Shown piece by piece: positions 3,652 to 39,933 of a stretch of 64,000 nucleotides of DNA (within the stretch, counting starts at the first letter, position 1; each line of letters starts with the position of its first letter). The DNA lies in contig PGYV01000002.1 of NCBI GenBank assembly GCA_002839855.1, positions 203,125 to 267,124 on the forward strand, in the 5' to 3' direction. Origin of the DNA: Candidatus Goldiibacteriota bacterium HGW-Goldbacteria-1. GTDB taxonomy: Bacteria; Oederibacteriota; PGYV01. The position numbers and the translations under genes were made by a program. The notes beneath the pieces are model-generated. The model was not told the DNA's origin, did not search any database, and was given only the letters and a program-made list of their open reading frames with translations.

Positions 3652-3660
3652 ATAAATCTT

Positions 3661-3868
3661 AAACTATAAGCATAGAAGCAGATAAGCATAAGCGCAGGAT
3701 ATAAAGAAATTCTTTTGCTATAGCTTAACTGCTTAATATTTTAAAGTGTTATACTTTCGTTATTGCTTAAAGTTTAAACCGTCCCTCCGTACATCTGTCC
3801 CTCTGTCCCTCGGTTTTACCAAGCCTCCAAGCCTCCAAGCATCTAAGCCTCCAAGCCTCCAAGCCTCT
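3661..3868. repeat. Composite intergenic repeat, copy 1. An 'ataagc'-rich module (3661-3697) plus 'GTCCCTC...CCAAGCCTCCAAGC' octamer tandem repeats (3776-3868)
   Basis: Related copies occur at 10516-10929 and 21563-21760. 'CCAAGCCT' is tandemly repeated about 5 times. ORF 3746..3949 is a translation artefact of this repeat. Confidence 0.7.
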
Positions 3869-3888
3869 TGTTTTGCCGGGTTTCATAA

Positions 3889-5735
<1,847 letters not shown>

Positions 5736-5736
5736 T

Positions 5737-6051
5737 ATGAAAAGGGATAATGACTATAAAAAAGAATTTCAGACAAAAATAGAAAGTGAAATTGATAAAA
5801 AAGAGCAGGCAAAAAAAACCGGTTCAGAGGCCCTGTACTGGATAGGCATGATGGGTATTGTGGGATGGTCAGTCACAATTCCTCTGCTGGCGGGGATATT
5901 TCTGGGCAGATGGATAGATGAAAAATTCCCGGGGCAGTATTCGTTTACCTTAATGTTAATGTTTGCAGGGTTGGCGCTTGGCTGCTGGAACGCGTGGTAT
6001 TGGGTGCAAAAAGCAAGCCGGAATAAAAAGGAAAAAGATAAAAGTAAATAA
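5737..6051 (+). CDS. atpQ: AtpQ-like small membrane protein (ATPase_gene1/AtpZ family)
   Basis: 104 aa with two predicted TM helices ('ALYWIGMMGIVGWSVTIPLLAGIFLGRW', 'FTLMLMFAGLALGCWNAWYWV'). Lies between atpC and the a-subunit gene. Confidence 0.5.
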   Translation: MKRDNDYKKEFQTKIESEIDKKEQAKKTGSEALYWIGMMGIVGWSVTIPLLAGIFLGRWIDEKFPGQYSFTLMLMFAGLALGCWNAWYWVQKASRNKKEKDKSK

Positions 6052-6063
6052 ACGGAGGCGCGT

Positions 6064-6372
6064 ATGAACAATATAATGCTTGTTGTGTCTGCGGCGGCGG
6101 GTGCGGTTACGGCGTGGATATATCTGATGCTGCTAAAAAGGACTGTTTTACAGATTACGTCCGGCAAATCATCAGCTGTTTTGATATTCGGATATTTTCT
6201 TCGGATAGCCATCTGTATTATTTGTTTTGCCGCGGTTTCGTGGGGTAATCACCTTGACAGGGTGCTTGCGTGTTTGGTGGGTTTCAGTGTTGTGCAGATT
6301 AGTTCAATAATCAGGGCGGGCAGACAGTCAGATTTCTTAAAAAGCGCGGGGAATTATGGAAATAAATCCTGA
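6064..6372 (+). CDS. atpR: AtpR-like small membrane protein (N-ATPase accessory)
   Basis: 102 aa with about 3 TM helices and an Arg inside the first TM ('LLKRTVLQI'). Sits immediately upstream of subunit a. Confidence 0.5.
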   Translation: MNNIMLVVSAAAGAVTAWIYLMLLKRTVLQITSGKSSAVLIFGYFLRIAICIICFAAVSWGNHLDRVLACLVGFSVVQISSIIRAGRQSDFLKSAGNYGNKS

Positions 6373-7027
6373 CAATATGCAGATGTTCAGTATAGGAATT
6401 ATAAAAATCAATGCCACTATTTTTTATACGTGGATTGTTATGGCTCTGCTGACACTATTTTCTATTATTATTACATCGCGCCTTTCAACCGGGGCAAAGA
6501 TACCGCGGTGGCAGGGCGTGCTGGAAGTAATTGTATCTTTTGTAAACAATCAAATAAGGCAGGTGATAGGGCGCAACCCGCGGCCTTATACCGCTTTTCT
6601 TGGTACGCTGGGAATATTTATACTTGTGTGTAATGTGTTGGAAGTGGTGCCGCTGTACCATCCGCCCACGTCGTCGCTGTCCACCACAGCCGCGCTGGCT
6701 GTAAGCGTGTTTTTTGCTGTGCCGTTCTATGGGATATTAAAGAATGGGCTGTGGGCGCATATCAAGTCATATTTTCAGCCGTCATTTTTTATGCTGCCTT
6801 TCCATATTATAAGCGAGATTTCAAGGACAGTGTCCCTTGCGGTAAGGCTTTTTGGAAATATCATGAGCGAAAGTTTAATGATAGGCGTGTTTCTTTCGGT
6901 TGTGCCGCTATTTGTGCCGCTTGTTATGCAGGCCTTTGGGCTGGTAATAGGCGTGGTTCAGGCATATATTTTCTTTACTCTGGCAACTGTTTACATAGGG
7001 TCTTCCGTGTCAATACACGGGGAATAA
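6356..7027 (+). CDS. atpB: ATP synthase F0 subunit a
   Basis: Polytopic membrane protein with the 'LAVRLFGNIMSE' motif carrying the conserved Arg. Confidence 0.9.
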   Translation: MEINPDNMQMFSIGIIKINATIFYTWIVMALLTLFSIIITSRLSTGAKIPRWQGVLEVIVSFVNNQIRQVIGRNPRPYTAFLGTLGIFILVCNVLEVVPLYHPPTSSLSTTAALAVSVFFAVPFYGILKNGLWAHIKSYFQPSFFMLPFHIISEISRTVSLAVRLFGNIMSESLMIGVFLSVVPLFVPLVMQAFGLVIGVVQAYIFFTLATVYIGSSVSIHGE

Positions 7028-7048
7028 AAAAATGAAAGGAGGGTCATA

Positions 7049-7327
7049 ATGGACAATGCAACGATAGTGGCGGTAGTTTCAATCATTACGGCAGGGGCGA
7101 CAATTACATTAGGGACAATGGTTCCCGCGTACGGCGAGATGAAAGCGCTGATAAAGGCGCTTGAATCAATTACGCAGCAGCCGGATGCTTCAAATGTGTT
7201 AAGCAGAAACCTTTTTGTGGGGCTTGCCATGATTGAATCGCTGGCAATTTACTGCCTTGTAATTTCAATAATTCTTATATTTACAAATCCGTTCTGGAAT
7301 TTCATGACAACAGCCGGAGGAAAGTAG
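7049..7327 (+). CDS. atpE: ATP synthase F0 subunit c
   Basis: 92-aa hairpin proteolipid. Helix 2 reads 'GLAMIESLAIYCLV'. Helix 1 carries Glu in 'VPAYGEMKA'. Confidence 0.9.
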   Translation: MDNATIVAVVSIITAGATITLGTMVPAYGEMKALIKALESITQQPDASNVLSRNLFVGLAMIESLAIYCLVISIILIFTNPFWNFMTTAGGK

Positions 7328-7328
7328 G

Positions 7329-8111
7329 ATGCACTTTGACCTGTTTACATTCATTGCGCAGCTTATTAATTTCGCGTTGCTTGTATTTCTGCTTAATAAG
7401 TTTCTTTTTGGCAGGATTAAAGCCGCAATGGACGAAAGGGAAAAAAAGATAGCCGGCGACCTTGAAAAGGCGGGTATTCTAAGGGAAGAAGCGCAAAAAT
7501 CCGCGGCGCTTGCGGCAGAAGAATTAAAATTGCTGGAAAGCCGCAGGCAGGAAATGCTGGATAATGCCCGCAAAAAAGCGCGTGAAGAAGCTGAAGAAAT
7601 GAAAGCCGCAGCGCAGGGCGCGCAGCGGGAGCAGCAGAAAAAATGGCAGCAGGCATTTTCGGGAGAGCAGGAAAACTACTTAAGGATGCTTAAAGCGCAT
7701 TCCGGTAAATTCGCGTGGAAGGTTTCTGAAAAGATGTTAAGGGAGCTGTCTGATGAAAAGATAAATGATAAAGCCGCGGAGATATTTTTAAAAAAACTGG
7801 AAGCGCTTGGCGGCGCGCAAACGGCGGAATTTAAAGCGGCGGTTAACAGGTCGGAAAAACCTGTGGTGGTTTCAAGTCCGTTTATTATAGATGCCGGTAT
7901 TAAGGATAAAATTTCCGGTGTAATTGCAGCCAAGACAGGCAGCCAAAAAACAGTTATATATGAGCTTAACGAAGCTCTGGTCTGCGGTATTGAAGCCGGG
8001 GCTGAAGGGTATAAAATATCATGGGGCGGGGAGGAATATTTTTCCGGTATAGAAAAAGAAGTGATGGATGTTTTTAAAGATGGAAGCAAAAAAGGCGGAT
8101 ACGATGGATGA
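7329..8111 (+). CDS. atpF: ATP synthase F0 subunit b (unusually long; possible b/delta-like fusion)
   Basis: N-terminal TM 'FTFIAQLINFALLVFLLNKFLF' followed by a coiled coil. At 260 aa it is much longer than a typical b subunit. The C-terminal part loosely resembles the delta (OSCP) C-domain. No separate delta gene is present. Confidence 0.75.
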   Translation: MHFDLFTFIAQLINFALLVFLLNKFLFGRIKAAMDEREKKIAGDLEKAGILREEAQKSAALAAEELKLLESRRQEMLDNARKKAREEAEEMKAAAQGAQREQQKKWQQAFSGEQENYLRMLKAHSGKFAWKVSEKMLRELSDEKINDKAAEIFLKKLEALGGAQTAEFKAAVNRSEKPVVVSSPFIIDAGIKDKISGVIAAKTGSQKTVIYELNEALVCGIEAGAEGYKISWGGEEYFSGIEKEVMDVFKDGSKKGGYDG

Positions 8112-9660
8112 AAGTAAAAATATAAAAAGCACGCTTAATAATATGCTTGATTCCGTTTTTACAGAAGCGGAAAAGATAGCGGGTGAGAATTCCGCGTCAC
8201 TTTTACTGGGAGAGACCGGAACAGTAATTTCCGTGGGCAGGGGTATCGCATCCGTAAAAGGGCTGTTTAATGTGAAATCAGATGAACTTATAAGTTTTCC
8301 GGGAGGGTATTACGGAACTGCTTTTAATCTGGAACCGGATTATGTGTTAGTGGTGCTTCTGTCAAAAAGCGATGATATTTCCGCGGGTATGCAGGTAAAA
8401 AGAACAGGCAAAACAGTAAGCGTGCCTGTGGGCGAAGCGCTGCTTGGCAGGGTGGTTGACCCGCTTGGCAGGCCGCTGGATAACGGTGCTGAAATAGCGG
8501 CCGAAAAATGGTACCCGTCGGAAAGGCCGTCGCCGGTTATTATGGACCGCGCGCCGGTAAATATGCCGCTGCAGACAGGTATTACAGCGGTGGATGCGCT
8601 GATACCAATAGGCAGGGGGCAAAGGGAGCTTATTATAGGCGACAGGCAGACAGGCAAGACTGCAGTTGCCGTGGACACAATAATAAATCAGCGCGGCAAG
8701 AATGTGATATGCGTGTACTGCTCTATCGGGCAGCAGAATTCAGCCGCGGCAAAGGTAATTGCATCACTTAGAGACGCCGGGGCAATGGATTACACTTTTA
8801 TAGTTGTATCCGGAGGGGATGACCAGCCGGGAATGAATTTTCTGGCGCCGTATTCGGCGTGCTCTATGGCGGAATTTTTCATGGAGCAGGGAAAAGATGT
8901 ACTGATAGTATTTGACGACTTAAGCAAACACGCCCGTTCTTACAGGGAAATTTCCCTGTTGCAAAGGCGCCCGCCCGCAAGGGAGGCCTTCCCGGGCGAT
9001 ATTTTTTACATTCATTCGCGGCTGCTTGAAAGGGCAACTCACCTGTCCGCGGAAAAAGGGGGCGGCTCGCTTACCGCGCTTCCTGTGGTGGAAACAGAGG
9101 CGCAGAATATTGCGGCGTATATCCCCACAAATCTTGTCTCCATAACAGATGGGCAGATATACCTGTCGCCTAAACTATTTCAGCAGTCGGTCCTGCCTGC
9201 CGTGGATGTGGGCAAGTCTGTATCACGCGTTGGCGGTGCGGCGCAGCTTCCGGCTTTCAGAAAAACAGCAGGCGACCTTAAACTTTCATATTCCCAGTTT
9301 GAAGAGCTTGAAATTTTTGAAAGGTTTTCAACCAAACTGGATGACCGGACAAAACAGTCGCTGCTGCGCGGCCACAGAATACGCGCCGTTTTAAAACAGC
9401 AGCAGAATAACCCCGTATCTGTTATGGGGCAGATAGCGCTTTTAACCGCAGTTAATAACGGGGTGTTTGATGAAATTGCCGAAAACGCCGTGCCGGCAGC
9501 CGCGGATATTGTAAGGCAAAAGGCAGAGGCGGAATTAAAAACAATCTCGGAGAAGATACTGGCAGGCAATGAAATCACTCCGGAAGATAATATTATAATT
9601 CTGAATACTGTAAAAAAACTAATTTCAGAAAGCACAGGTAAAAACAATGCAGTCTCCTGA
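8104..9660 (+). CDS. atpA: ATP synthase alpha subunit
   Basis: P-loop 'GDRQTGKTAVAVDTIINQ'. The start codon was chosen at 'MDESKNIK', which has an RBS-like 'AAGGCGGA' upstream. The ORF-track start is 8068. Confidence 0.9.
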   Translation: MDESKNIKSTLNNMLDSVFTEAEKIAGENSASLLLGETGTVISVGRGIASVKGLFNVKSDELISFPGGYYGTAFNLEPDYVLVVLLSKSDDISAGMQVKRTGKTVSVPVGEALLGRVVDPLGRPLDNGAEIAAEKWYPSERPSPVIMDRAPVNMPLQTGITAVDALIPIGRGQRELIIGDRQTGKTAVAVDTIINQRGKNVICVYCSIGQQNSAAAKVIASLRDAGAMDYTFIVVSGGDDQPGMNFLAPYSACSMAEFFMEQGKDVLIVFDDLSKHARSYREISLLQRRPPAREAFPGDIFYIHSRLLERATHLSAEKGGGSLTALPVVETEAQNIAAYIPTNLVSITDGQIYLSPKLFQQSVLPAVDVGKSVSRVGGAAQLPAFRKTAGDLKLSYSQFEELEIFERFSTKLDDRTKQSLLRGHRIRAVLKQQQNNPVSVMGQIALLTAVNNGVFDEIAENAVPAAADIVRQKAEAELKTISEKILAGNEITPEDNIIILNTVKKLISESTGKNNAVS

Positions 9661-10513
9661 GGAGGTAAAAAGAAAACTATCCGGGGCTGAATCTTTAAAG
9701 TCAATAGTGCGCACAATGAAGGTGCTTGCCGCGGTAAATGTCAGGCAGTATGAGAAGATGTCTGATGCTATTGACAGGTATAACGAAATTGTGGAAATGG
9801 GTTTCAGGGTGTTTTTGGGTAATGAAGAAAAAAATTATAATCCGGCGCCGGAAGAAGAAAACACCGGATATATTGTACTGGGTTCGGATATGGGCATGTG
9901 CGGAAGGTTTAATGACCAGATAGCAGCGTATGCTTTGGAAAAAACAGGTAATAATACAGATACAGTGATGGCGGTCGGCGACAAAGTTTCCGCCAAGCTG
10001 GAAGACGCAGGGGTTAAGCCGGCGGAAACTATTATTTATCCGGCAGTCCTGTCCGCGGGCATTGTGCCGCTTCTGCGGGAGATAATTCTTAAAATTGACG
10101 GGTGGCGGGAGACCAGAGGCATAAATTCCATAAGTGTATGCTATAACAAACCGGCAGATTCACTGTCGTACAATCCTGTTATGAAAAAGATTCTTCCCAT
10201 GGAGCCGGAATATCTGGAGCAGTTAAGAAAAAAAGAATGGAAATCCCGCAGCCTTCCTATATATAAAGAAGATAGGGAGAAGTTATTCTCCGGCCTTGTT
10301 AAGAATTATATTTATGTAGCGCTATACAGGGCGTTTGTGGAATCGCTTGTAAGCGAAAACACGGCAAGGCTTATTTCCATGCAGGCGGCGGAAAAACATA
10401 CCGCAGAACGCATAGAGGAGCTGACACTGGAATACAACATGGAACGCCAGGACGCCATCACCTCTGAAATCCTTGACATCATCGCCGGCGCAGAAGCGGT
10501 GGAAGGGAAGTAA
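9647..10513 (+). CDS. atpG: ATP synthase gamma subunit
   Basis: 288 aa. Last gene of the operon. Its C-terminal 'ITSEILDIIAGAEAV' is gamma-like. Confidence 0.8.
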   Translation: MQSPEEVKRKLSGAESLKSIVRTMKVLAAVNVRQYEKMSDAIDRYNEIVEMGFRVFLGNEEKNYNPAPEEENTGYIVLGSDMGMCGRFNDQIAAYALEKTGNNTDTVMAVGDKVSAKLEDAGVKPAETIIYPAVLSAGIVPLLREIILKIDGWRETRGINSISVCYNKPADSLSYNPVMKKILPMEPEYLEQLRKKEWKSRSLPIYKEDREKLFSGLVKNYIYVALYRAFVESLVSENTARLISMQAAEKHTAERIEELTLEYNMERQDAITSEILDIIAGAEAVEGK

Positions 10514-10515
10514 AA

Positions 10516-10929
10516 AAAGCGATTTAAGCTATAAGCAGTTAAGCATAAGCGATAGCTATGATTTTGTAGTGGTTTATTTTTTTTCTTTGAATTTGTAGGG
10601 ATAGCGCTCCCGCGCTGTCCGCGTATTTGATTTGTCCTGGTAGACGCGGGTCTTCAGCCCGCGGCAGTTGGTTTGTATTTAATGTTTGTATTTATATTTA
10701 TATTTATATTTGTATTTGTATTTGTATTGGTATTGGTATTGGTATTGGTAGACGCGGGTCTTCAGCCCGCGGTAGTTGATTTGTATTTAATGTTTGTATT
10801 TGCCATGGTAGGCGAACCCTTTAGGGTGCGGCAGTTGTTCTTGAACGGTCTGCCTTGTCGCCGTTCTTCCGTCCCTCGGTTCTACTGACCTTCCAAGCCT
10901 CTAACCATCCAAGCCTCCAAGCATCTCTC
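10516..10929. repeat. Composite intergenic repeat, copy 2. Contains the 'aagctataagcagttaagcataagc' module, two REP-like hairpins, a microsatellite and the 'CCAAGCCT' module
   Basis: GTAGACGCGGGTCTTCAGCCCGCGG occurs at 10639 and 10747. A second hairpin CGAACCCTTTAGGGTGCG occurs at about 10815. The CCAAGCCT tail spans 10861-10929. Confidence 0.75.
10661..10741. repeat. Compound hexanucleotide microsatellite (TATTTA)n(TTTGTA)n(TTGGTA)n
   Basis: Directly visible as tttatatttatatttatatttgtatttgtatttgtattggtattggtattggtattgg. Confidence 0.9.
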
Positions 10930-10944
10930 AAGATAAAAATTCCC

Positions 10945-10973
10945 TTGCCAAACCTCCGCCACAGCCATATAAT
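10945..10973 (+). promoter_or_regulatory. sigma70-like promoter TTGCCA-N17-TATAAT with a conserved roughly 110-nt leader. Duplicated at 16937
   Basis: -35 TTGCCA, a 17-bp spacer and -10 TATAAT. The next roughly 110 nt are near-identical to 16966-17075. Confidence 0.55.
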
Positions 10974-11163
10974 ACCAATTGTGGCAGGGGTAATATAAAA
11001 GGAAGCGGAGGGAAGATGGAATTGGGAGCAAAAAATCGTTTTTCGTTTCTGCCTGTTATCAACAACAACTTCCCTAAAACTATGTTAAGTTTTGCCTATT
11101 TCGCGAATTTATATTCAAATTCCAAACGCAAGGGTATGGATAATAACGAGTTTTTTGTTCTGA

Positions 11164-11190
11164 TTTCAAGGTCTGGTATGAGATTATTAT
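11164..11190 (+). promoter_or_regulatory. Conserved upstream element TTTCAAGGTCYGGYAYGRG-TTATTAT (copy 1 of 4)
   Basis: Lies 25-50 nt upstream of the 11215 start codon. Paralogous copies occur at 13996, 15609 and 17141. Confidence 0.5.
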
Positions 11191-11214
11191 TTTGAATTAG
11201 GGAGGTTTTTGCGA

Positions 11215-12471
11215 ATGGCTAAAAATATTTCTTTTATAAGTATGCTGCGAGTAGTTGTTCGATTACATTCTAAAGGTATTGTCTGCGCGTTTTTATTAAT
11301 TTCAGTATCAACTATGGTATGCATTTCCTGTTCCAGACACTTAAGCCCGCCTGCTATTTCAACATCTCCGGTAACGCAGGTTCCAACTGCGGCTATTTCG
11401 GGTACTGTCTCTGCTGCGGCTTCTCATACTTTTACAAATACAGATACACCTGTTGTTTTTTACACAAATACAGAAACAAGTACGTTTACAATGACAGATA
11501 CATTTACACCAACTCGAACGGCAACAAATACCAAAACTCCTATTCCAACACTGTCTTCGGCGCAGATAATAGCCACGCAGACTGTAGTTGCGGAAATGGT
11601 GGCAGTCCCCGGGGGTACGTTTACGCAGGCGGATTCATATGGAAATTACAGTTTCGTTCACACAATTTCACCATTTAAGATTGCAAAATATGAACTTACT
11701 TATGATCTTTGGTATAAAGTGTATGATTGGTCCAGACAATCGGGTAATTATGTATATGCAAGTAATTACAGTGTCAGTGAAGGTTTTATAGGAACAACTA
11801 AACAACCGACCAACGCGAGATTTCAACCGGCTTATGGCATGTCCTGGTATGATGCAATCATTTGGTGTAATGCTTATAGTGAACTGGCAGGATTGACACC
11901 TGTTTACTATAAAGATCCTGCATTTCTTATTCCGCATAATGTTTCAAAGATAATATATCCACCAGATATTGATCCAACTCCCGGGAGTATTGATTATCCG
12001 TATGTGAAATGGGATGCAAATGGATATAGGTTACCTACATATGGAGAATGGCAATACGCGGCAAGGTATATTGACGGAACCAGTTGGCTTCCAACCAATT
12101 ACGCAAGTGGAGCGGCGGATTTTGAATATAACAGTTATGCAACAATGGCTGTTGCGTGGTGCGTGGAAAATTCAGATTATTATACGCATATTGTAGGTTT
12201 GTTGATCCCAAATGCACTGGGGATTTATGATATGTCCGGAAATGTTTCAGAGTGGTGTTGGGATTGGGGTAATACTTATTTCCCGAATACGCCGAAAGTA
12301 AATTACAGGGGACCGGATGTCTGTAGCCTGATAAATCCGGGACGAATAATAGCGGGTTCTTATTTTACTATCAGTTCTTTTGATTCCGGTGTTCATTATC
12401 TCAGTTGGAGTGATTTATTCTATGGGAACATGGGTGGTGCAGTAACAATAAGACTTGTCAGATCAAACTGA
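11215..12471 (+). CDS. Secreted lipoprotein with a Thr-rich linker and a C-terminal FGE-sulfatase (SUMF1-like) domain
   Basis: Lipobox-like 'MVCISC'. Low-complexity 'TNTDTPVVFYTNTETSTFTMTDTFTPTRTATNTKTP'. FGE-family motifs 'GYRLPTYGEWQYAARY' and 'YDMSGNVSEWCWDW'. Confidence 0.75.
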   Translation: MAKNISFISMLRVVVRLHSKGIVCAFLLISVSTMVCISCSRHLSPPAISTSPVTQVPTAAISGTVSAAASHTFTNTDTPVVFYTNTETSTFTMTDTFTPTRTATNTKTPIPTLSSAQIIATQTVVAEMVAVPGGTFTQADSYGNYSFVHTISPFKIAKYELTYDLWYKVYDWSRQSGNYVYASNYSVSEGFIGTTKQPTNARFQPAYGMSWYDAIIWCNAYSELAGLTPVYYKDPAFLIPHNVSKIIYPPDIDPTPGSIDYPYVKWDANGYRLPTYGEWQYAARYIDGTSWLPTNYASGAADFEYNSYATMAVAWCVENSDYYTHIVGLLIPNALGIYDMSGNVSEWCWDWGNTYFPNTPKVNYRGPDVCSLINPGRIIAGSYFTISSFDSGVHYLSWSDLFYGNMGGAVTIRLVRSN

Positions 12472-12520
12472 CGGTGTTTTTTACTTTTAAATCGCGTTTC
12501 TAACATATAAAAGGGGTGTT

Positions 12521-13846
12521 TTGATGAGAGTGGCTGCAATCATACCGGTTTTGATAGTATTAATAGAGGGATGTACTGCTCACAGAGCGCCGTCACCTGT
12601 CACTGCGGTGGTGATTCCTGCTGAAAGTGTTACAGTTACCGCGACATATACTTTGACAGCAGTAAGCACGCATACGCCTGCGGCTTCTATCAGCCCGACA
12701 CATACCCCCGCTGCCACTGCCACTGCCACTGCTACTCCGGGATGTTTTGTTGTCACGTTTGCCGATCCTAATTTAGAACAACTTATTAGAGCGAAGATTG
12801 CTAAGTATAGTGGAGACATATATAACTGTGATCTGGCAGGGATTTATGAAATTGATGTGGTTTTTGAAATTTATGATTTATCGGGTTTGGAATATTGTAC
12901 AAATGTAAAATATTTAGATCTTGACTTTTTTAAGGGGAATACTTTAGCGCAGTTGGCTACTATGAAGCAATTAGTAAATATACACATTCACGGCAAAGGT
13001 CAGGTGATAGATATAACGTCATTAAGTGAATGCACGATTTTATCAACGTTAAAACTAATAAACGTTGACATATCCGGCACTGTAAGTTCAATTAGTAATT
13101 TGTTTAATCTGGTGGTTTTAGATCTTGATTCTGAGTCTTTACCAAATCTTTCGGCTTTATCAGCGCTTACAAAACTTGTATATCTAAGTGTTTCTGCCTC
13201 GAATTTAAGTGATATTTCGGCCATTTCGGGATTAACGAATGTAGAGTATTTGGATATTGTTGCCGGCGGAATTACTTCTTTATCCGTTTTAAGCGGATTA
13301 GATTTACGTGAATTTTCATTTACTCATCTCCCAAGATACATAAGAAGGTCAATAGTATCAGATCTTTCGCCTTTTGCAGGCATGACAAATCTGGAGATTT
13401 TTAGAGTGTCGGGTGCTGAAATTACCGATATTTCTCCTTTGTCTAATTGTACGTCTTTGATTAATCTTACTATTAATGATACGCTTATTACCAACCTTAA
13501 CGCGTTATCTGCTTTGTCAAATCTTCAAGATGTTACTCTTTGGGAAAATATAAATCTTGATGATATAAGCGGCCTTGCAAATTCTAAAAGTATTTCCGAC
13601 CTTTCTATTATTGGTTCGAAAGTATCAGATATAAGTGCTATATCTACTATGTCTTGTTTATTTTCGATTGACCTGCCTAATAATATGATAACGGACATAC
13701 ATCCCATTGTGTTAAATGCGCAGGATAGTTCGTGTGGACAGAGTCCTTATAGTATTTTCTTGACAGGCAATCCGCTAAGTGCCGCGGCATTAGCAGACAT
13801 AGAATTGCTTGAAAATACTTACGGGGTAAGTGTCATGTATGAATAA
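12521..13846 (+). CDS. Leucine-rich-repeat (internalin-like) lipoprotein with a Thr/Ala-rich linker
   Basis: Signal/lipobox 'LIVLIEGC'. Repeated 'L..L..L..LDLS...I.DIS.LS.L.NL' units, for example 'ITDISPLSNCTSLINLTINDTLITNLNALSALSNLQDVTL'. Confidence 0.75.
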   Translation: MMRVAAIIPVLIVLIEGCTAHRAPSPVTAVVIPAESVTVTATYTLTAVSTHTPAASISPTHTPAATATATATPGCFVVTFADPNLEQLIRAKIAKYSGDIYNCDLAGIYEIDVVFEIYDLSGLEYCTNVKYLDLDFFKGNTLAQLATMKQLVNIHIHGKGQVIDITSLSECTILSTLKLINVDISGTVSSISNLFNLVVLDLDSESLPNLSALSALTKLVYLSVSASNLSDISAISGLTNVEYLDIVAGGITSLSVLSGLDLREFSFTHLPRYIRRSIVSDLSPFAGMTNLEIFRVSGAEITDISPLSNCTSLINLTINDTLITNLNALSALSNLQDVTLWENINLDDISGLANSKSISDLSIIGSKVSDISAISTMSCLFSIDLPNNMITDIHPIVLNAQDSSCGQSPYSIFLTGNPLSAAALADIELLENTYGVSVMYE

Positions 13847-13854
13847 AAACGGTG

Positions 13855-13890
13855 GCAGACATTGGAAGTAAAATGTCTGCTTGATATTGT
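13855..13890 (+). terminator. Hairpin terminator candidate after the LRR gene
   Basis: GCAGACAT-N10-ATGTCTGC followed by a T-rich stretch. Confidence 0.45.
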
Positions 13891-13995
13891 TTCCCAAATT
13901 GCACTCTAGCTCTTTGTGGGGTAGGTAAAACATATAATTAGGAAAAAGGCATAAGTCTGTCAGGCGGAAATGGGTTATTAATTATTTATTTCAAC

Positions 13996-14024
13996 TTTAA
14001 AGATTTGGTATGGGCACTTTAATA
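13996..14024 (+). promoter_or_regulatory. Conserved upstream element (copy 2 of 4), diverged: TTTAAAGATTTGGTATGGGCACTTTAAT
   Basis: Same position relative to the start codon. Preceded by the conserved block 'GGTAAAACATATAAT..GGCATAAG.CTGTCAG.CGGAAAT', which is shared with 15540-15600. Confidence 0.45.
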
Positions 14025-14047: not shown

Positions 14048-14884
14048 ATGCGGCTGAATCGTTATTTTTTTGTTATGTTTTTTGTGTTTATATTTGTTAT
14101 TTCCGCGCAGTCAAAAGATGCTGCTTATTATATGAAAGCGGGAATAGAAAGGGATGGTTCAGGAGATGATAGAGGAGCTTTAAAAAATTATAATCAGGTT
14201 ATTAAATTAGATCCTTCAAATGCAAAGGCGTATTCGTACCGCGGTGTAATTGAAGAAAGAGCCGGCAAGTTAAAAGAAGCGCTTATTGATTTTGATAAAG
14301 CGGTGGCTTTAGATCCTGATTTTGCGGATGCACATTTTAACAGGGGTGTAGTATTAGATAAACTTAAGCAATATGAAAAGGCCTTAAAAGCATATGATAA
14401 AGCAATAGAATTAGAACCCAAAATGGCATCTGCATACTTTAACCGTGGAAATGTAAAAGTTTCTATTAATAACCTTAAATCAGCAATAAAAGATTACAGC
14501 ATGGCAATACAAATTAATCCCAAATATATCGGCGCATATTATAACAGAGGCAGTGCCAGAGATAAAAATGGAGAGTTAAAATTGGCTTTGGCAGATTTTG
14601 ATGAGATACTTAAATTAAATGAAAATATAGCAGAAGCATATGTTAAACGCGGAAAAATCAAAATGAAACTAAACGACTATAACGGAGCAGTTGATGATTT
14701 TAGTGTTTTGATAACAGGTTATCAGGGGCCGCCTGATGAGTATATTTCTGAATTGTACTTTCTTCGCGGTTTTTGTTTTGAGAAACTGGCTAAATATAAA
14801 AATGCAATACGCGATTTTGAACTGTCAGCGGAATTTGGTTCGGCAGATGCAAAAGAACATCTGGTCAATTTAAAAGGGAAGTAA
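14048..14884 (+). CDS. TPR-repeat protein, secreted
   Basis: Signal peptide 'FFVMFFVFIFVISAQS'. About seven TPR units ('AKAYSYRGVIEERAGKLKEALIDFDKAVALDP' and similar). Start chosen at the second ATG, which follows a GGGAGG RBS. Confidence 0.75.
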   Translation: MRLNRYFFVMFFVFIFVISAQSKDAAYYMKAGIERDGSGDDRGALKNYNQVIKLDPSNAKAYSYRGVIEERAGKLKEALIDFDKAVALDPDFADAHFNRGVVLDKLKQYEKALKAYDKAIELEPKMASAYFNRGNVKVSINNLKSAIKDYSMAIQINPKYIGAYYNRGSARDKNGELKLALADFDEILKLNENIAEAYVKRGKIKMKLNDYNGAVDDFSVLITGYQGPPDEYISELYFLRGFCFEKLAKYKNAIRDFELSAEFGSADAKEHLVNLKGK

Positions 14885-14930
14885 AACGTGTCTTAACTCT
14901 TGCATGGCAGGGTGAAAACGTAACAGGAGA

Positions 14931-15479
14931 ATGATGGCGAATAAAAAGCGGATTTCTGCGGATAAAACTAAAAAGAGAGCAAAAAAAGCAGATAAAACGA
15001 AGGCAAAAAAGGCCATACCCGCGGTTAAACCGCCGGGGCAAAACCGCGGCGTTGCCATAAAGAAAACGCCTGTTTTGCTTGTAATACTTTTTCAGTTAAT
15101 TACTCTTGGTATTTATTATCCTATATGGTTTTTGCGCAGGATGAAAAGTTTTAATAAAATGGCAAAAATTACAGGGGAAGTGGAAATATCCAAAGCGGCG
15201 CTAGTCTTTGCACTGGTTCTTGAAATTTTATCTGCGGTTGCGGTGCTATTTGGTTCACGTGCGGGTATTTTTTCACTTATTACATTTATTTTGCTCACAG
15301 TTCAGGCTTTTAGAAGCAGAAGGATTATGGTTTCGTACCAGAAGATGCATAAAATAAAACTGGTAATGCCGGGTTTAGCGGTATTTTTTATTTCACCGTA
15401 TTATCTGCAGTATGAGATTAACAGATTGAATATTAAGATAGGGACAAGGCGTAAAAAAAATACCCGTATCAGATCATAG
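14931..15479 (+). CDS. Small membrane protein with a Lys-rich N-terminus
   Basis: 'KKRISADKTKKRAKKADKTKAKKA' followed by about 3 TM helices. Confidence 0.45.
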   Translation: MMANKKRISADKTKKRAKKADKTKAKKAIPAVKPPGQNRGVAIKKTPVLLVILFQLITLGIYYPIWFLRRMKSFNKMAKITGEVEISKAALVFALVLEILSAVAVLFGSRAGIFSLITFILLTVQAFRSRRIMVSYQKMHKIKLVMPGLAVFFISPYYLQYEINRLNIKIGTRRKKNTRIRS

Positions 15480-15608
15480 GATAAGAAAGCATAAATTTTA
15501 TTGTGTAATATTTTATTCCGAACTGCAGTTTCGTTCTTTGTGTGGCAGGGTAAAACATATAATAATAAAATGGCATAAGCCTGTCAGACGGAAATTATCT
15601 TCCGGGAC

Positions 15609-15649
15609 GGTTTTACTTTCTGGTTTCAAGATCCGGTACGGGTTATTAT
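15609..15649 (+). promoter_or_regulatory. Conserved upstream element (copy 3 of 4) GGTTTTACTTTCTGGTTTCAAGATCCGGTACGGGTTATTAT
   Basis: Near-identical to 17141-17181. Confidence 0.5.
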
Positions 15650-15686: not shown

Positions 15687-16889
15687 ATGAAGAATATTTT
15701 AATAACGTTTATATTTTTGGTTATGGGCATTATTCCTGCCATTGCTTTGGAAAAACCGAATAATTCCAAGGCTGTAGATGAAAAGATGGAAAAGATAAGG
15801 ACGATGGAAGATAAAACGATTCAAATGAAACTCGGCAGGTCATATATCGCAGAACTGGATGGTATGATTCAAAAAGACGCCAAAAATCCTGAACTTTTCT
15901 ATAAAAAAGGAAATGTTTATTTTTATATAGAGGATGATGCAAACGCCATAAAGTTCTTTTCCGAGGCCATTTCTCTGTCTCCTGCGGTTTCTGTTTATCA
16001 CTTTAAAAAAGGAATATCACTGTATTATCTTAGGGACATTGACGGTTCCATAAAAGAGTTAAAAACATCAGCTGAGTTGGATAAGAAGTGCGAAGAATGT
16101 TTTTATGAGTTGGGCTGCAGATACTCTGAAAAAGATGATTTTGCGAACGCTGAAGCGGCTTTTAAATCGGCGCTCAGGATAAATCCGGAATTTCCGGATG
16201 CTATGTCGAAGCTTGGCGGATTATATGCGGAAAAGAGAATGTATGAAAAAGCACTTCCGTTTTTCAGGGAAATAGTTAAACGCAGGCCTGAAAATGTAAG
16301 TGATTTATATAACCTGGGGGTGGTACTGCAGCAGCTAAGGAATAATAAAGAGGCAGCAGACTGTTTTTCGGCTGTTGTCAAGAAAAACAAAGAAGACTGG
16401 CAGGCGATAGCAAAACTTTTACAGATAAGCCAGTCAGCTGACCGCGATGAAGAAGTGAATAAATATATGAAAATGCTTTTTGCGCTATATAGGGCGGGAA
16501 AAGTAGGTAAGGATTCATTTTGCAGGGAACAAATATGGGCTGGTGATGTACAGATAGTAGTTATGCAGGCCTTTGAGTTAAAAGGCGAATTTGCCAAACC
16601 GTATGTATTTCTTTTGACCGACTCTAAGACAGGCAGGACGCTTTATGAACTTAGTCTGGAGTCGTTTGAAGCAGACACGCAGATTGCCAGAGAGACCGGA
16701 CAGATAAAAAAAGATGAGAGGGTATATACGTATGATTATCATGATACTTCTGACGGTGATTTTCACGGTACTCTTGGGATAGTGAACAAAAAACCGGAAT
16801 ATAAGAAATTAAGGAAAATTATGCTTGGATTTGTTGATAGCAAAAATAAAGGAACACTTAAATTTGTAAGTTCTACCGTTACAAAATGA
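15687..16889 (+). CDS. TPR-repeat protein, secreted
   Basis: Signal peptide 'ILITFIFLVMGIIPAIA'. TPR units ('AEAAFKSALRINPEFPDAMSKLGGLYAEKRMYEKALPFF'). Confidence 0.7.
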   Translation: MKNILITFIFLVMGIIPAIALEKPNNSKAVDEKMEKIRTMEDKTIQMKLGRSYIAELDGMIQKDAKNPELFYKKGNVYFYIEDDANAIKFFSEAISLSPAVSVYHFKKGISLYYLRDIDGSIKELKTSAELDKKCEECFYELGCRYSEKDDFANAEAAFKSALRINPEFPDAMSKLGGLYAEKRMYEKALPFFREIVKRRPENVSDLYNLGVVLQQLRNNKEAADCFSAVVKKNKEDWQAIAKLLQISQSADRDEEVNKYMKMLFALYRAGKVGKDSFCREQIWAGDVQIVVMQAFELKGEFAKPYVFLLTDSKTGRTLYELSLESFEADTQIARETGQIKKDERVYTYDYHDTSDGDFHGTLGIVNKKPEYKKLRKIMLGFVDSKNKGTLKFVSSTVTK

Positions 16890-16936
16890 ATTTAACAGGA
16901 TTGACCCCGAGCTGCTGCTTTTAATAAAAAATACCA

Positions 16937-16965
16937 TTGCCAAATACCTGTTATCGCCATATAAT
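16937..16965 (+). promoter_or_regulatory. sigma70-like promoter TTGCCA-N17-TATAAT plus conserved leader (copy 2)
   Basis: Paralog of 10945-10973. The leader 16966-17075 is about 95 percent identical to 10974-11084 apart from a 1-nt indel. Confidence 0.55.
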
Positions 16966-17140
16966 ACCAATTGTGGAAGGGGTAATATAAAAGGAATCGG
17001 AGGGAAGATGGAATTGGGAGCAAAAATCGTTTTTCGTTTCTGCCTGTTATCAACAACAACTTCACAATAACTTTGTTTATTTTTGCCTATTTTGCGAATC
17101 TAAATTCGATTTCCAAAAGCAAAGTTATGAATAATTACTT

Positions 17141-17181
17141 GGTTTTACTTTCTACTTTCAAGGTCCGGCACGGGTTATTAT
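17141..17181 (+). promoter_or_regulatory. Conserved upstream element (copy 4 of 4) GGTTTTACTTTCTACTTTCAAGGTCCGGCACGGGTTATTAT
   Basis: Lies 68 nt upstream of the GHKL ATPase gene start. Confidence 0.5.
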
Positions 17182-17248
17182 TCATAAATTATGTAAGTTG
17201 TAATAGTAAATAGTTTATATAAAATGGTTTTGTATGGAGGCGGAGTAT

Positions 17249-19660
17249 ATGAGTAACGAAGATTTATTCTGGGAGTTTTATCGTGCGTCTGGAGAAAATG
17301 AAATTCATAATATTCTTGAAAAACACGATTTAATGAATAACAATTCTTTTTGGTTTCCATATGGGGGTAAGACGATTGATGATAGAAATAATTTTGGTAC
17401 GTTTGAAAGTCAGCAAGCAAATCCGATACCCGCTTTAATAGAAAAAATTACAAATTCTATTGACTCGCTATTGATGTTAAAATGCATAGAAAATGGTGTT
17501 GATCCGAAAAGTAAACTAGCTCCTAAGACAATGGAAGAGGCGATAGAAAAATATTTTAACATAAAAGATGGCGATTTTAGTGAGATAGGTAGAAATGTTA
17601 GGCGAAATATAGCTGAAGAAATACAAGTGATAGCTACTGGTGACAAACAAAGTCCTGACATTACTGTATATGATTGCGGCGAAGGTCAGTTACCAGAGAA
17701 GTTTAAAGATACATTTGTTTCGTTGTTGAAAGGAAATAAGAATGATGTACCATTTGTTCAAGGTAAATATAATATGGGTTCAACTGGAGCGGTAATTTTC
17801 TGTGGTAATAAGAAATATCAATTGATTGGGTCGAAATTAAATAAAACTATTGGTAGTTCTGAAAGTCCATTTGGATTTACATTAGTGCGTAGGCATCCAT
17901 TAACGGAAGAAGAAGAAAGCAAATATAAAAGTAGTTGGTATGAATATTTGGTTATTGAAAATGAAATACCAAGCTTTAATTGTGGCGAACTTGATTTAGG
18001 TCTGTATAATAGAAAATTCGAGTGTGGTTCAATTATTAAAATGTTTTCATATGGATTGCCAAGAGGGGCTCGTTCATCTGTGGTATGGGATTTGTGGAGA
18101 GAATTGAATCAGTTTCTATATCATCCAGCACTGCCGTTTCTTGTTTATGAAAAAAGAGGATATGATAATAAAACTCCGTCAAAACTAGTTCTTGGTAATA
18201 AGATCCGGTTAATTCTTGATGAAAGAGACAAAAAAGAAAAAACGATAACTACAAAAATCATTGATGAAAGATTTGGTGAAATTCCAATAGAAGTTCATGT
18301 GTTTAAAAATGATGTGAATCAAACTGAGTTTATCAACGGCAAAGCATTGATTTTTACTGTAAATGGACAGGTTCAGGGTTATGAAAAAAGAAACTTTATT
18401 TCAAGTGAGTTAAATTTCCCTATGTTGAAAGATCATATGCTTGTTAGGGTTGATTGTACAAATATAAGGACTTCTATACGAACGGATTTATTTAAGTCTT
18501 CTAGAGATAGATTGAATGAAAGTGTTTTAACGGAAGAATTTCTTGATAAAATTATAAATGTTTTAAAAGGCAATGAAGAATTAAGGAAAATTAACCAGGA
18601 AAGAAAGAATTCTATTTTACGACAAAATGCAGATGATAAGAAGTTATTTGAAGATATTATAACAAGAATGCCTCTGCAAAATGATTTTATTAAAATGTTT
18701 ACACAGTCAAATGATTTTAATTTTGATCTTAAAAATATAAATAAGAAACATGATAGGACTGATTCGTCTGATGGAAGTGAGAAAACTAAAAAGCCGATTG
18801 AGTCGAAAAGATTTCCTTCGATTTTCAAAGTTCAATTAAAAGATAATAACAATAAAGATAAAATTAAGACAATACCCATAAACGGAAAAGGTGTTATCAA
18901 TTTTGAAACCGATGTTGAAGATGAGTATTTGTTTAGGCCTAAAGATAAAGGCGAACTAAGAATTGGAATATTAAATTATAAAAGCAATAATGCCGACGGT
19001 GGAACGGAAGCAAAGCCAACCAAGATTGAAGAACTATTGGATGTCACTCTTAGCGGACCAACGGATAATGCAATTAAAGCGACTTTTGAACCTAAGGCGA
19101 AATTAAATGTTGGTGATGAAATTCAAATAAGCACTACGCTAACATCTCCTTCGGGGGATTTGGAATGTATTTTCTACATTAAAATTATAGATCCTCAGAA
19201 TTTGCAAGATAATAATTCAAAGAATAAAGACAAAGAAAGTCTTAACCTACCTTTGCCAATAAAAGTATTTGAAAACAAAGACAAAGACGATGATAGGACG
19301 TGGAGTGATTATGGTTGGGATGGCAATGATATTGTAAAGATAATAACTGATAATGAAAATAAAGAAAAAAAATTGATTGAGGGTATAGCGATAAATATGG
19401 ACAGTTTTGTAATCAAAAGATATATTTCTAAAAATAAAGTTATTACTTCAAGTGATCTGGTATTAACAAAGAATAGATACTTCCTTTCTGTTTATTGGCA
19501 TAGTATTTTTCTGTTTAAATTTCTTGAGAATATTTTTAAAGCCGAAGAATATCAAGAATTACCAGAAGATGTTGAGGAGATAGTAGCGCAATTGATGCAG
19601 TTTTATTCAGAATTTTTATTATCTTTTGGTATGTTAGGAGAGAGTTTAAATCAGGATTAA
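17249..19660 (+). CDS. Large (about 800 aa) GHKL/Bergerat-fold ATPase-domain protein with a K/N/D-rich C-terminal region. Candidate defence protein A
   Basis: N-box 'ALIEKITNSIDSL' (E-x3-N-x2-D). G1 box 'ITVYDCGEGQ' (D-x-G-x-G). G2-like 'QGKYNMGSTGAV'. Start chosen after 'GGAGGCGGAGTAT'; the alternative start is 17234. No signal peptide. The gene is AT-rich. Confidence 0.55.
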   Translation: MSNEDLFWEFYRASGENEIHNILEKHDLMNNNSFWFPYGGKTIDDRNNFGTFESQQANPIPALIEKITNSIDSLLMLKCIENGVDPKSKLAPKTMEEAIEKYFNIKDGDFSEIGRNVRRNIAEEIQVIATGDKQSPDITVYDCGEGQLPEKFKDTFVSLLKGNKNDVPFVQGKYNMGSTGAVIFCGNKKYQLIGSKLNKTIGSSESPFGFTLVRRHPLTEEEESKYKSSWYEYLVIENEIPSFNCGELDLGLYNRKFECGSIIKMFSYGLPRGARSSVVWDLWRELNQFLYHPALPFLVYEKRGYDNKTPSKLVLGNKIRLILDERDKKEKTITTKIIDERFGEIPIEVHVFKNDVNQTEFINGKALIFTVNGQVQGYEKRNFISSELNFPMLKDHMLVRVDCTNIRTSIRTDLFKSSRDRLNESVLTEEFLDKIINVLKGNEELRKINQERKNSILRQNADDKKLFEDIITRMPLQNDFIKMFTQSNDFNFDLKNINKKHDRTDSSDGSEKTKKPIESKRFPSIFKVQLKDNNNKDKIKTIPINGKGVINFETDVEDEYLFRPKDKGELRIGILNYKSNNADGGTEAKPTKIEELLDVTLSGPTDNAIKATFEPKAKLNVGDEIQISTTLTSPSGDLECIFYIKIIDPQNLQDNNSKNKDKESLNLPLPIKVFENKDKDDDRTWSDYGWDGNDIVKIITDNENKEKKLIEGIAINMDSFVIKRYISKNKVITSSDLVLTKNRYFLSVYWHSIFLFKFLENIFKAEEYQELPEDVEEIVAQLMQFYSEFLLSFGMLGESLNQD

Positions 19661-19696: not shown

Positions 19697-19726
19697 TTGA
19701 CAGTAGAAATGCACAAAGCTTATAAT
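19697..19726 (+). promoter_or_regulatory. Consensus sigma70 promoter TTGACA-N18-TATAAT upstream of the DGQHR/GIY-YIG gene
   Basis: 'ttgacagtagaaatgcacaaagcttataat' sits in the 237-bp A-B intergenic gap. Confidence 0.55.
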
Positions 19727-19897
19727 TACATTAATGTTTTAGGGAGTAATTATATAGCAATATGACATTCGAAATAACATTAAGAAAGAGTTCTAAAACT
19801 TATTTTTCAAAACGAATAGATCCAAAAGAAAAAATTCTTATTTATCAGATAGAATGTGATTTTATTCGAAAGTATAAAATTTGGAGGTTTATTAAAT

Positions 19898-21415
19898 ATG
19901 GAAAAATTTCATTATCCCGCAATAAGATTAAAACAATTTAATACCGAATTATACCTAACAAGTCTTTCTGCTGAAAGTGTAGCATATTTAGTTAATCAAA
20001 AATCATTAATCGTCGACAAATATCAAAGAGGCGAAGAAGATTCTTATCAAAGGAACGAAGATCATAGTAAGATTAGAGAACTTGCTGACTTTTTAAGATT
20101 ATATAAGAATGATGATATTGTAAAGCCGATTTTGCCAGCATCAATCATCATTAATGTCCCCGACAGTTCTAACCTAACTTTTGATGAAAAAAACGGCCAA
20201 ATTATTCTTGATAAAAAAGCAAAATTGAATATCGTAGATGGGCAGCATCGAGTCAAGGCTGTTTGTAAAGCTTATAGCGATGGAATCGCAGATGATTTCG
20301 AAGTACCAGTTACATTTATCAAAGGGTTAAAACGCATTCATGAAGCGGCTCAGTTTTTAATTATCAACGTTAAACAAAAACAAGTTAGAACCGATTTAAC
20401 CATGACCATATTGCATGAAATGAATGTACAAACGAACCAACTTGCAACGAAATTGAGAAAAATACTTAAAGTAGATGGATGGCAGATTGAAGCGACCGCC
20501 ATCGCTATTGATGTAAATACCAGGCAAAGAAGTCCATGGTTTAATTTAATAATGAGGCCCAATGAATCAAAACAATCATTGAAAGAACTAGGGGTAAAAT
20601 GGGTACCTATCAAACAGGCTTCATTTGTCGATTCACTCAGAAGATTTTGCGCTACAAATACTTCTAAAACGCTCGAGGAAAAGATCGCATTTTTAATTAA
20701 AACATGGAATTATCTTAAAAAAGAATACGCCCCTTCATTTGATTGCGAGACTGGGAATAATTATATGTTAACCAAAGGAACCGCGATAGGGCCAATACAT
20801 ATTTTTATGAGTTTGATGTATTCCATGGAAACCTGTGGTTTGTATGAAAATATCGAAGAAGTAATGACAACGTTTGTAAAAAAATATCCGTTAGAATTCT
20901 GGGAAAAGGGAAGCAAACACGCAGGATCATGGGGCACTTCGCAAAAAGAATATTATACACACGCAAAAGAAATTTCTGAAGTAATGTTTCCGGAATTGTA
21001 TTCTTTTTGGAACTCGGATTTATTAGAACATTATAGAAAAAAAGATTTAGTTGATGATGAAGTTCTTAATAGTATTGAGCATCTAATGGATCCTTTTTCG
21101 CTGAAACCATATACGGAAATAGAAGAATACATTAAAAACGATGTATCTGGTATATATTTATTAATAAATAAAAAACGAAATAAACTGAATATGTATGTTG
21201 GGCAAGCCGAAAGCATAAAGGACAGAGTTGCTGGTCATAATAGAGATTTCCTTGCTTTTAATTTCATCACTGTTAACGGCGAAGATCTAGACACGAGCGA
21301 AGCGCTCGTATATCATTTGATTAACAAAGAGTTTAGAACAAATACAATACATCCTCCTACTAAAAAATGTGAATTTTGCGAACACGATAAAAAACATAAG
21401 TCTAAGAAGAAATAA
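19898..21415 (+). CDS. DndB-like DGQHR-domain (ParB/Srx-fold) protein fused to a C-terminal GIY-YIG nuclease domain. Candidate defence protein B
   Basis: N-terminal 'YPAIRLKQFNTELYLTSLSAESVAYL' and 'KLNIVDGQHRVKAV' (DGQHR motif). C-terminal 'SGIYLLINKKRNKLNMYVGQAESIKDRVAGHNRD' (GIY...YVG...R...H, a GIY-YIG core). Terminal Cys/His cluster 'CEFCEHDKKH'. Start chosen at the ATG after a GGAGG RBS; the ORF-track start is 19856. Confidence 0.6.
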   Translation: MEKFHYPAIRLKQFNTELYLTSLSAESVAYLVNQKSLIVDKYQRGEEDSYQRNEDHSKIRELADFLRLYKNDDIVKPILPASIIINVPDSSNLTFDEKNGQIILDKKAKLNIVDGQHRVKAVCKAYSDGIADDFEVPVTFIKGLKRIHEAAQFLIINVKQKQVRTDLTMTILHEMNVQTNQLATKLRKILKVDGWQIEATAIAIDVNTRQRSPWFNLIMRPNESKQSLKELGVKWVPIKQASFVDSLRRFCATNTSKTLEEKIAFLIKTWNYLKKEYAPSFDCETGNNYMLTKGTAIGPIHIFMSLMYSMETCGLYENIEEVMTTFVKKYPLEFWEKGSKHAGSWGTSQKEYYTHAKEISEVMFPELYSFWNSDLLEHYRKKDLVDDEVLNSIEHLMDPFSLKPYTEIEEYIKNDVSGIYLLINKKRNKLNMYVGQAESIKDRVAGHNRDFLAFNFITVNGEDLDTSEALVYHLINKEFRTNTIHPPTKKCEFCEHDKKHKSKKK

Positions 21416-21562
21416 TTTTCAATCATTAAATTGATCGGATACTATTAACGAAATTACCAGTTAAAGTAATATCTGTGCCGGACATTAAAAAAGAAAGTAA
21501 ATTTATTGTTTGATTTTTCTTACGGAATGCAATCTGGGGCTTTGCGGGGAAGGGTTGGGTTA

Positions 21563-21760
21563 AAAAAGCGTTTTAAGCTATAAACAGTTAAGCAAAAGCA
21601 ATTTGACCTTTTGACCGGGTGGATAGTTAAAAATAATCTACTACCGCGGGCTGAAGACCCGCGTCTACCAGATCCAAACCAATCCTACAAGCAATCGAGA
21701 TGCCTTGCCCTTGCTTCCGTTCCTCTGTGCATCTGTCCCTCCGTCCCTCCGGTCTTACGG
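21563..21760. repeat. Composite intergenic repeat, copy 3. Contains an atpG-3'-end-like segment, the 'aagctataaacagttaagc' module, an inverted REP hairpin and the GTCCCTC module
   Basis: 21541-21602 resembles 10490-10557, including the last codons of atpG. CCGCGGGCTGAAGACCCGCG at 21641-21669 is the reverse complement of the 10639 hairpin. 21711-21760 resembles 3781-3830. Confidence 0.7.
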
Positions 21761-21872
21761 CTTTCATAAAAATCCCTTTACAAAATCAATTTTTTCTGTA
21801 AAATACTCCGAAAGTGTTTTTCTGCGCTAAAACTGTGTTTTATAAACACTATACTTCTTGAAGGAGGAACAG

Positions 21873-39906: not shown

Positions 39907-39933
39907 TTAACAACGTACAACTAACAAGTTACA

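Follow-up and report, generated by a model that had tools for sequence, protein, structure and literature searches.

In the genome of Candidatus Goldiibacteriota bacterium HGW-Goldbacteria-1, an element of about 40 nucleotides, which we call E, is repeated at the head of four neighbouring transcription units. They belong to an 11-kb island of low GC content that is flanked by atpG and hppA. The repeat observation itself is confirmed. We read E as a sequence-specific cis-regulatory site that would lie in the transcribed leader and would have been spread by local promoter and leader reuse together with gene conversion. We hold this reading tentatively, with a little less than even confidence, on the strength of the sequence comparisons given below.

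The 19-nt core of E, TTTMAAGRTYYGGYAYGRG, occurs four times in the window (the whole stretch of 64,000 nucleotides that was analysed), at 11164, 13996, 15624 and 17156, always on the + strand like the genes. It was searched for as the degenerate pattern TTTCAAGRTCYGGYAYGRG with up to three mismatches allowed, and the match at 13996 has two. By chance 0.18 matches are expected, and none of 100 dinucleotide-preserving shuffles reached four. An independent repeat search found the same family (D7), with 15609-15649 as the reference, 17141-17181 at 90% identity and 11149-11189 at 66%. An nhmmer profile built from the four copies recovered them with E-values of 3e-11 to 1e-7, while the next best match in the window had an E-value above 3. 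An earlier note on this DNA had described four copies in sense orientation to the genes, and this is borne out at the same coordinates. It had put the element 25-70 nt before the start codon, which agrees with the 24 nt (FGE, 11215), 23 nt (TPR-B, 14048), 37 nt (TPR-C, 15687) and 67 nt (808-aa gene, 17249) that we measured from the end of E to the likely ATG. The description of the downstream genes as four consecutive accessory genes needed correction: the statement does not hold for genes, but it does for four consecutive transcription units, which hold seven genes. No copy of E was found before the LRR, DUF4234 and DndB-like genes. The coordinates of all features are collected in Table 1.

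Table 1. Transcription units, copies of E and upstream repeats in the island (positions in the window).
Feature	Position	Strand	Content
Unit A	11215-13846	+	secreted FGE-sulfatase-domain protein 11215-12471; LRR lipoprotein 12521-13846
Unit B	14048-15479	+	TPR protein (TPR-B) 14048-14884; DUF4234 membrane protein 14931-15479
Unit C	15687-16889	+	orphan TPR protein (TPR-C)
Unit D	17249-19660	+	803/808-aa GHKL-like (PF13589-type) protein
DndB/DpdB-like DGQHR protein	19856-21415	+	own 12/12 consensus promoter 19697-19726; no E
Element E, copy A	11149-11190	+	before the FGE-sulfatase/LRR unit; core TTTCAAGGTCTGGTATGAG at 11164-11182
Element E, copy B (most diverged)	13981-14024	+	before the TPR-B/DUF4234 unit; core TTTAAAGATTTGGTATGGG at 13996-14014
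Element E, copy C	15609-15649	+	before TPR-C; core at 15624-15642
Element E, copy D	17141-17181	+	before the 808-aa GHKL-like gene; core at 17156-17174; 90% identical to copy C
Type I promoter-leader repeat, copy A	10935-11191	+	promoter TTGCCA-17-TATAAT 10945-10973, L1 10974-11072, L2, E
Type I promoter-leader repeat, copy D	16927-17182	+	promoter 16937-16965, L1 16966-17063, L2, E
Type II upstream repeat, copy B	13884-13971	+	GGTAAAACATATAAT (TATAAT 13933-13938) + GGCATAAGTCTGTCAGGCGGAAAT
Type II upstream repeat, copy C	15508-15595	+	TATAAT 15558-15563

The copies are 60-68% identical to each other, except for the adjacent pair C and D, which reaches 90%. Counted by segment, the identities are 27 of 42 positions for A and D, 27 of 44 for B and C, and 35 of 39 for C and D. 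Of the 19 positions of the core, 12 never vary, and six of the seven variable ones show transitions only. Unlike the core, the flanks have accumulated indels and transversions. The core had been called near-palindromic, which we could not confirm since its inverted repeat consists of the 3-bp CCG/CGG only. It is asymmetric and has neither a dyad nor the regularly spaced repeats typical of dimeric DNA-binding proteins, which weakens the idea that E is operator-like. The idea that it is RBS-proximal is weakened as well: depending on the copy, the Shine-Dalgarno sequence follows the end of E after 8, 12, 25 or 54 nt, and E is therefore not placed at a fixed distance from the ribosome-binding site. 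No candidate regulator was found among the neighbouring genes.

A further feature of the sequence around E is the motif YGRG(N)TTWTT, which is present nine times on the + strand of the 64-kb window. Five of these occurrences are at the ends of E copies: copy A has one at either end, copy B has one at its 5' end, and copies C and D each have one at the 3' end, while the 5' ends of C and D carry a weaker version, GGTTTTAC. Each copy is bracketed by a YG(R)G-TTWTT direct repeat (11147-11190, 13971-14024, 15607-15649 and 17139-17181). Its halves are 31, 31, 32 and 39 nt apart, which for all copies but one corresponds to roughly three turns of the helix. The bracketing motifs could be two contact sites of one protein, or an old internal duplication.

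The island differs from its surroundings in composition, with a GC content of 29-41% compared to 43-50% in the flanks. Its upstream border is the ATP synthase operon (3955-10513), which ends with the gamma subunit gene at 10513, and its downstream border is the H+-pyrophosphatase gene at 21858. The operon has the order beta, epsilon, AtpI-like, AtpR, a, c, b, alpha, gamma, which we take to resemble that of an N-type (Na+-translocating) ATPase. Inside the island, unit A ends with a terminator-like hairpin at 13854-13881. When homologues of TPR-C were searched among 5.8 billion proteins, the only close match was the protein itself. The nearest relatives of the GHKL-like protein are 55-58% identical and belong to unrelated genomes and other phyla, where its homologues adjoin recombinase, PIN and toxin-antitoxin genes; the GHKL-like gene of unit D is widely transferred horizontally. 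Because of the low GC content, the orphan TPR-C and the distant GHKL relatives in mobile contexts, the cluster is probably an acquired accessory island. The relatives of the GHKL-like protein carry PF13589, and PADLOC has no model for it. With the DndB/DpdB-like protein it forms a possible uncharacterised defence pair.

Low-complexity intergenic modules, each located between a stop codon and the next promoter-like site, were observed at 3651-3870, 10510-10935 and 21559-21765, and a fourth lies beyond the window (locus L134, 539-600). The two richest blocks bracket the low-GC island and the third precedes the atp operon. They include a TAAGC-rich 44-mer at 10510-10553 and 21559-21602 (89% identical), a hairpin, GTAGACGCGGGTCTTCAGCCCGCGG, at 10643 and 10751 on the + strand and at 21644 on the - strand, and arrays of the octamers GTCCCTCN and CCAAGCCT. 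A different kind of tandem array, with about 20 heptamers (TGTAACC or TGTAACT), is present at 39908-40068, in the gap where a MacB-type ABC transporter gene and a MatE gene converge.

E does not stand alone, but is part of larger repeats. The upstream regions of the FGE gene (A) and the 808-aa gene (D) are 83.7% identical over about 258 nt, which the earlier note had overlooked, and those of the TPR units B and C are 79.8% identical over 89 nt. The extra block that it had assigned to the TPR genes, GGTAAAACATATAAT..GGCATAAG.CTGTCAG.CGGAAAT, is indeed present. E is the 3' end of both upstream families and the sole stretch that can be aligned between Type I and Type II. The blastn similarity of the upstream repeats stops before the start codons. 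Of the coding sequences that follow, FGE and GHKL are unrelated, and TPR-B and TPR-C have a generic TPR similarity of 24%.

The Type I promoter, TTGCCA-17-TATAAT, agrees with the sigma-70 consensus at 11 of 12 positions. Between A and D, all six positions of the -35 hexamer and all six of the -10 hexamer are identical, in contrast to nine of 17 in the spacer, which suggests that the promoter has been kept by selection. Downstream of it, 96 of 99 positions are identical in L1, 59 of 77 in L2 and 27 of 42 in E, which makes E the least conserved part of this leader. In units A and D, E is located about 175-215 nt downstream of the Type I promoter, with the promoter about 190 nt before the core, and the terminator scan found no terminator-like site between the two. 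Since the promoter is upstream and no terminator intervenes, E would be transcribed in these units as part of a long 5' leader, of 240-280 nt if the Type I promoter is used. Units B and C have a perfect TATAAT with a poor -35 element, about 50 nt upstream of E and about 55 nt upstream of its core.

The 99-nt block L1, with which the leader begins after the shared promoter, is conserved between the FGE and GHKL leaders far more strongly than E. Rfam gave no match to L1, its fold does not reach significant stability, and the three substitutions disrupt predicted pairs and do not compensate for them. The conservation of L1 may come from recent gene conversion or from an unrecognised functional leader.

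Copies C and D come from different families, although they are near-identical over exactly E (90%, 41 nt). Judged by these identities, the upstream regions are a mosaic which arose by duplication and short recombination or gene-conversion tracts. The identities of A and D, B and C, and C and D also mean that local duplication with gene conversion explains the shared E at least as economically as the co-regulation by one DNA- or RNA-binding factor that had been suggested for these genes. Such co-regulation of the units is nevertheless compatible with the data and plausible.

What is best supported about E concerns its structure: it is the promoter-proximal module of duplicated and recombined promoter-leader segments that head the four adjacent units. 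According to the reading that we favour, E would act by its primary sequence and not by an RNA fold. A single trans-acting factor, encoded at another place in the genome, would bind it in one orientation, either as leader DNA or as nascent leader RNA. Genes that have nothing else in common, and most of which were horizontally acquired, would in this way come under a shared control that acts after initiation. The repeats, their mosaic structure and their position are seen in the sequence itself, while use of the upstream promoters, a function of E and the binding of a factor are inferred. Orphan and horizontally transferred genes are of the kind that comes under host regulation through the reuse of promoters (Nijveen et al. 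2012, PMC3575422).

E could also be a functionless relic of duplication, a strong rival that we rate somewhat below the favoured reading. One ancestral upstream region would have been copied to four places in the island, its distal parts would have been replaced, and short gene-conversion tracts (the 41-nt patch shared by C and D, and L1 of A and D) would have produced the mosaic. The apparent core would then be merely the least-decayed stretch, and it was in fact chosen post hoc as the best-conserved block. The low pairwise identity of the copies, with the adjacent pair C and D set apart, fits this explanation. So do the variants of A and B, where C-to-T and G-to-A changes set them apart from C and D, the kind of change that drift would produce in an AT-rich island. 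Since there are only four copies, all within 6 kb, and none elsewhere in the 98 kb or in public collections, shared ancestry alone could explain their similarity. However, E is kept in the same orientation and in the same place, just 5' of the Shine-Dalgarno sequence, in two unrelated upstream families whose remaining sequence cannot be aligned. Its core tolerates almost only transitions and has been spared the indels and transversions that crowd the flanks. Finally, the recombination tract between C and D coincides exactly with E, and neutral decay leaves this coincidence unexplained. These observations argue that E is more than a decaying copy.

The distribution of E was followed in about 98 kb of the source genome, which consisted of the 64-kb window and another 34 kb of its contig, of which 3 kb lie upstream, 10 kb downstream and 21 kb around a paralogous FGE gene. 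Neither E nor the two upstream families were found anywhere else in this sample. As no further copy of E is present in these 98 kb, no regulon is visible in them. The 600-nt region upstream of the paralogous FGE gene has no E, and the same was observed for the FGE homologues in a fragment of another Goldbacteria MAG and in a Logan contig. The loci of homologues of the 808-aa gene (55-57% identity) contain neither E nor a leader of the upstream families. The earlier note had named occurrence only in this window as a result that would speak against its proposal, and within the sampled DNA E is confined to 6 kb of one island.

In the genome-contig collection, the degenerate 19-nt core matched 120 loci, whose flanks showed chance or coding matches throughout; one example is a conserved Rhodobacteraceae gene, and the pattern is too degenerate. 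A metagenome scan with a stricter E pattern gave no matches. With a pattern that fits all four copies it gave one, which is antisense inside an ORF and was rejected as chance. There were no matches to E in the scan of the viral collection. A look-up of the identical ATP synthase c subunit returned short contigs of other samples only; samples 3300027719 and SRR10466901 carry an identical c subunit. All assemblies of this organism (JGI contig Ga0246094_000018, ENA and Logan) are 100% identical, and because of that there is no strain variation to compare.

Another possibility is that E serves as a promoter in its own right, for an alternative sigma factor or with the help of an activator, with TATTAT or TTTAAT after the GC core as the -10 element. 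In that case the consensus promoters further upstream would give rise to short transcripts of their own. We find this improbable. A -10-like hexamer does directly follow the core in every copy (TATTAT in three, TTTAAT in one), and copies B, C and D carry TTATG 7 nt beyond the hexamer, where the start site would fall. Moreover, E is asymmetric, oriented and T-rich in its upstream part, and its length of about 40 nt is that of a promoter footprint. Yet the + strand scan found no sigma-70 site with at least nine of 12 matches inside any copy, and the sole -35-like hexamer, TTTCAA, is located 14-16 nt from the -10-like hexamer, which is too close for the required spacer of 16-18 nt. The hexamer is not at a constant distance from the core (the variation is 0-2 nt), and A and B would be left with leaders of about 18-20 nt that begin at the Shine-Dalgarno sequence. 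The YGGYAYG of the core resembles the sigma-54 -24 box TGGCACG. When compared with the sigma-54 consensus (TGGCACG-N4-TTGCW), the GG is invariant, but the GC of the -12 element is missing in all four copies: GG-N10 is followed by TA or TT, and the -12 region reads ATTAT, TATTA or CTTTA.

Several other known DNA sites were considered and rejected. A sigma-B-like spacing and an IHF site were dismissed on reading the sequence of E. An integron attC site does not fit, as E has no RYYYAAC ... GTTRRRY core sites and no long inverted repeat, and the units carry their own promoter-like sites. A MITE or Correia-like element was rejected after the inverted-repeat search found short AT-rich arms only, which are not conserved between the copies. 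The DndB operator is the palindrome TACG-N10-CGTA (He et al. 2015, PMC4507180). No match to it was found in or near any copy of E, and the window contains seven one-mismatch matches where 14 are expected.

We think it very unlikely that E works as a structured leader RNA, whether as a weak terminator or attenuator, a thermometer, or a mask of the Shine-Dalgarno sequence. Copies C and D were flagged as terminator-like, with a 6-pair hairpin GRUCCG-GYA-CGGGUU followed by AUUAUU, and 83% of the cells of the helix can pair when G-U is counted. However, the predicted energy of the hairpin is only 0 to -5 kcal/mol, copy B is unfolded and the z-scores range from -1.4 to +0.8. The local leaders gave z-scores of -0.6 to +1.05 with minimum-energy folds that differ between the copies, and the full leaders gave +0.23 for A and -1.20 for D. 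RNAalifold retained two pairs. The 6-pair helix shows no compensatory change and its pairing is not above that of shuffles. The probability that the U-rich 5' part of E pairs with the Shine-Dalgarno sequence is 0.81 in copy C, a value that only 2% of shuffles reach, while it is 0.28 in A, 0.00 in B and 0.04 in D. Since it is negligible in B and D and modest in A, masking of the Shine-Dalgarno sequence is not a mechanism shared by the copies. Rfam gave no matches, either at the gathering threshold or at an E-value of up to 1. An intrinsic terminator or attenuator as such was rejected, with only C and D flagged and a tail of AUUAUU, not a run of U.

That E is coding sequence, at the C-terminal end of a small protein encoded upstream or of a leader peptide, is effectively refuted, even though copy A has a 59-codon ORF (11016-11195, NCBI CVV21_02440) which has a good Shine-Dalgarno sequence and spans L1 through E. 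In D, a 1-nt difference in an A-run cuts this ORF to 20 codons, the frame of the core differs between A and D, and no ORF runs across E in copy B. None of the four differences between C and D is synonymous, and the A/D substitutions in L2 are near neutral (about 11 non-synonymous to 4 synonymous, codons read by hand). The 59-aa peptide forms a singleton cluster, and 1.84 billion representatives contain no homologue of it. This "hypothetical protein", CVV21_02440 (PKL92635.1), is located wholly within the FGE leader and is probably a spurious gene call. This is a practical point for annotation, as it appears to be an ORF call inside a leader and not a gene.

If E is functional, as in our preferred reading of a cis-regulatory site in the leader, it would be a first candidate cis-regulatory motif for the uncultivated phylum Goldbacteria. 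Newly acquired genes, such as the orphan TPR and the defence-like GHKL genes, would have been wired to host control via a copied promoter-leader cassette. If E is a mere duplication relic, the finding is ordinary.

Among known systems, ops/JUMPstart (RfaH recruitment) and the nut boxA-boxB sites are short oriented leader elements located tens to hundreds of nucleotides past the promoter. They head surface, secreted or acquired low-GC operons, and their distance from the start codon is variable. With its pyrimidine-rich block followed by a small GC hairpin, E is loosely similar to boxA and boxB of nut, but there is no match to boxA, GCTCTTTA, and the hairpin is marginal or absent in copies A and B. 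The ops consensus is a sequence of 12 nt, GGCGGTAGnnTG. E does not match it either, and CGGTA is common to both in copy C only. By analogy, E might be a lineage-specific recruitment or pause site that resembles ops/JUMPstart or nut in kind while being unrelated to them in sequence. A Goldbacteria elongation or antitermination factor, or an RNA-binding regulator, encoded elsewhere would then license the low-GC acquired surface and defence genes, and other copies of E would mark other islands. This more specific proposal is a long shot.

Correia, ERIC and REPIN elements are similar to the repeats described here in being repeated intergenic DNA which bears promoter-like sequence and is found upstream of genes. 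Unlike them, the present repeats have no terminal inverted repeats or target-site duplications and are limited to 2 + 2 copies, and E has no palindromic REP-type structure.

Closer in kind are the putative mobile promoters, whose definition asks for 80% identity or more over a minimum of 50 nt in the DNA that precedes non-paralogous genes of one genome (Matus-Garcia, Nijveen & van Passel 2012; PMC3575422). As in those cases, similar non-coding DNA precedes non-paralogous genes and has neither an IS element nor an Rfam match. The A/D pair, with 83.7% over 258 nt, falls within the identity limits, and the B/C pair, with 79.8% over 89 nt, is borderline. The downstream genes are likewise non-paralogous, with FGE and GHKL unrelated and TPR-B and TPR-C sharing the generic 24%. 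E alone (C/D, 90% over 41 nt) is shorter than the 50 nt required. In contrast to the dispersed putative mobile promoters, the copies described here are clustered within 6 kb of one island, and they are mosaics in which two upstream families are joined to a common 40-nt module. The kind of thing, reuse of promoters and leaders, is already known; the E motif itself is new but local.
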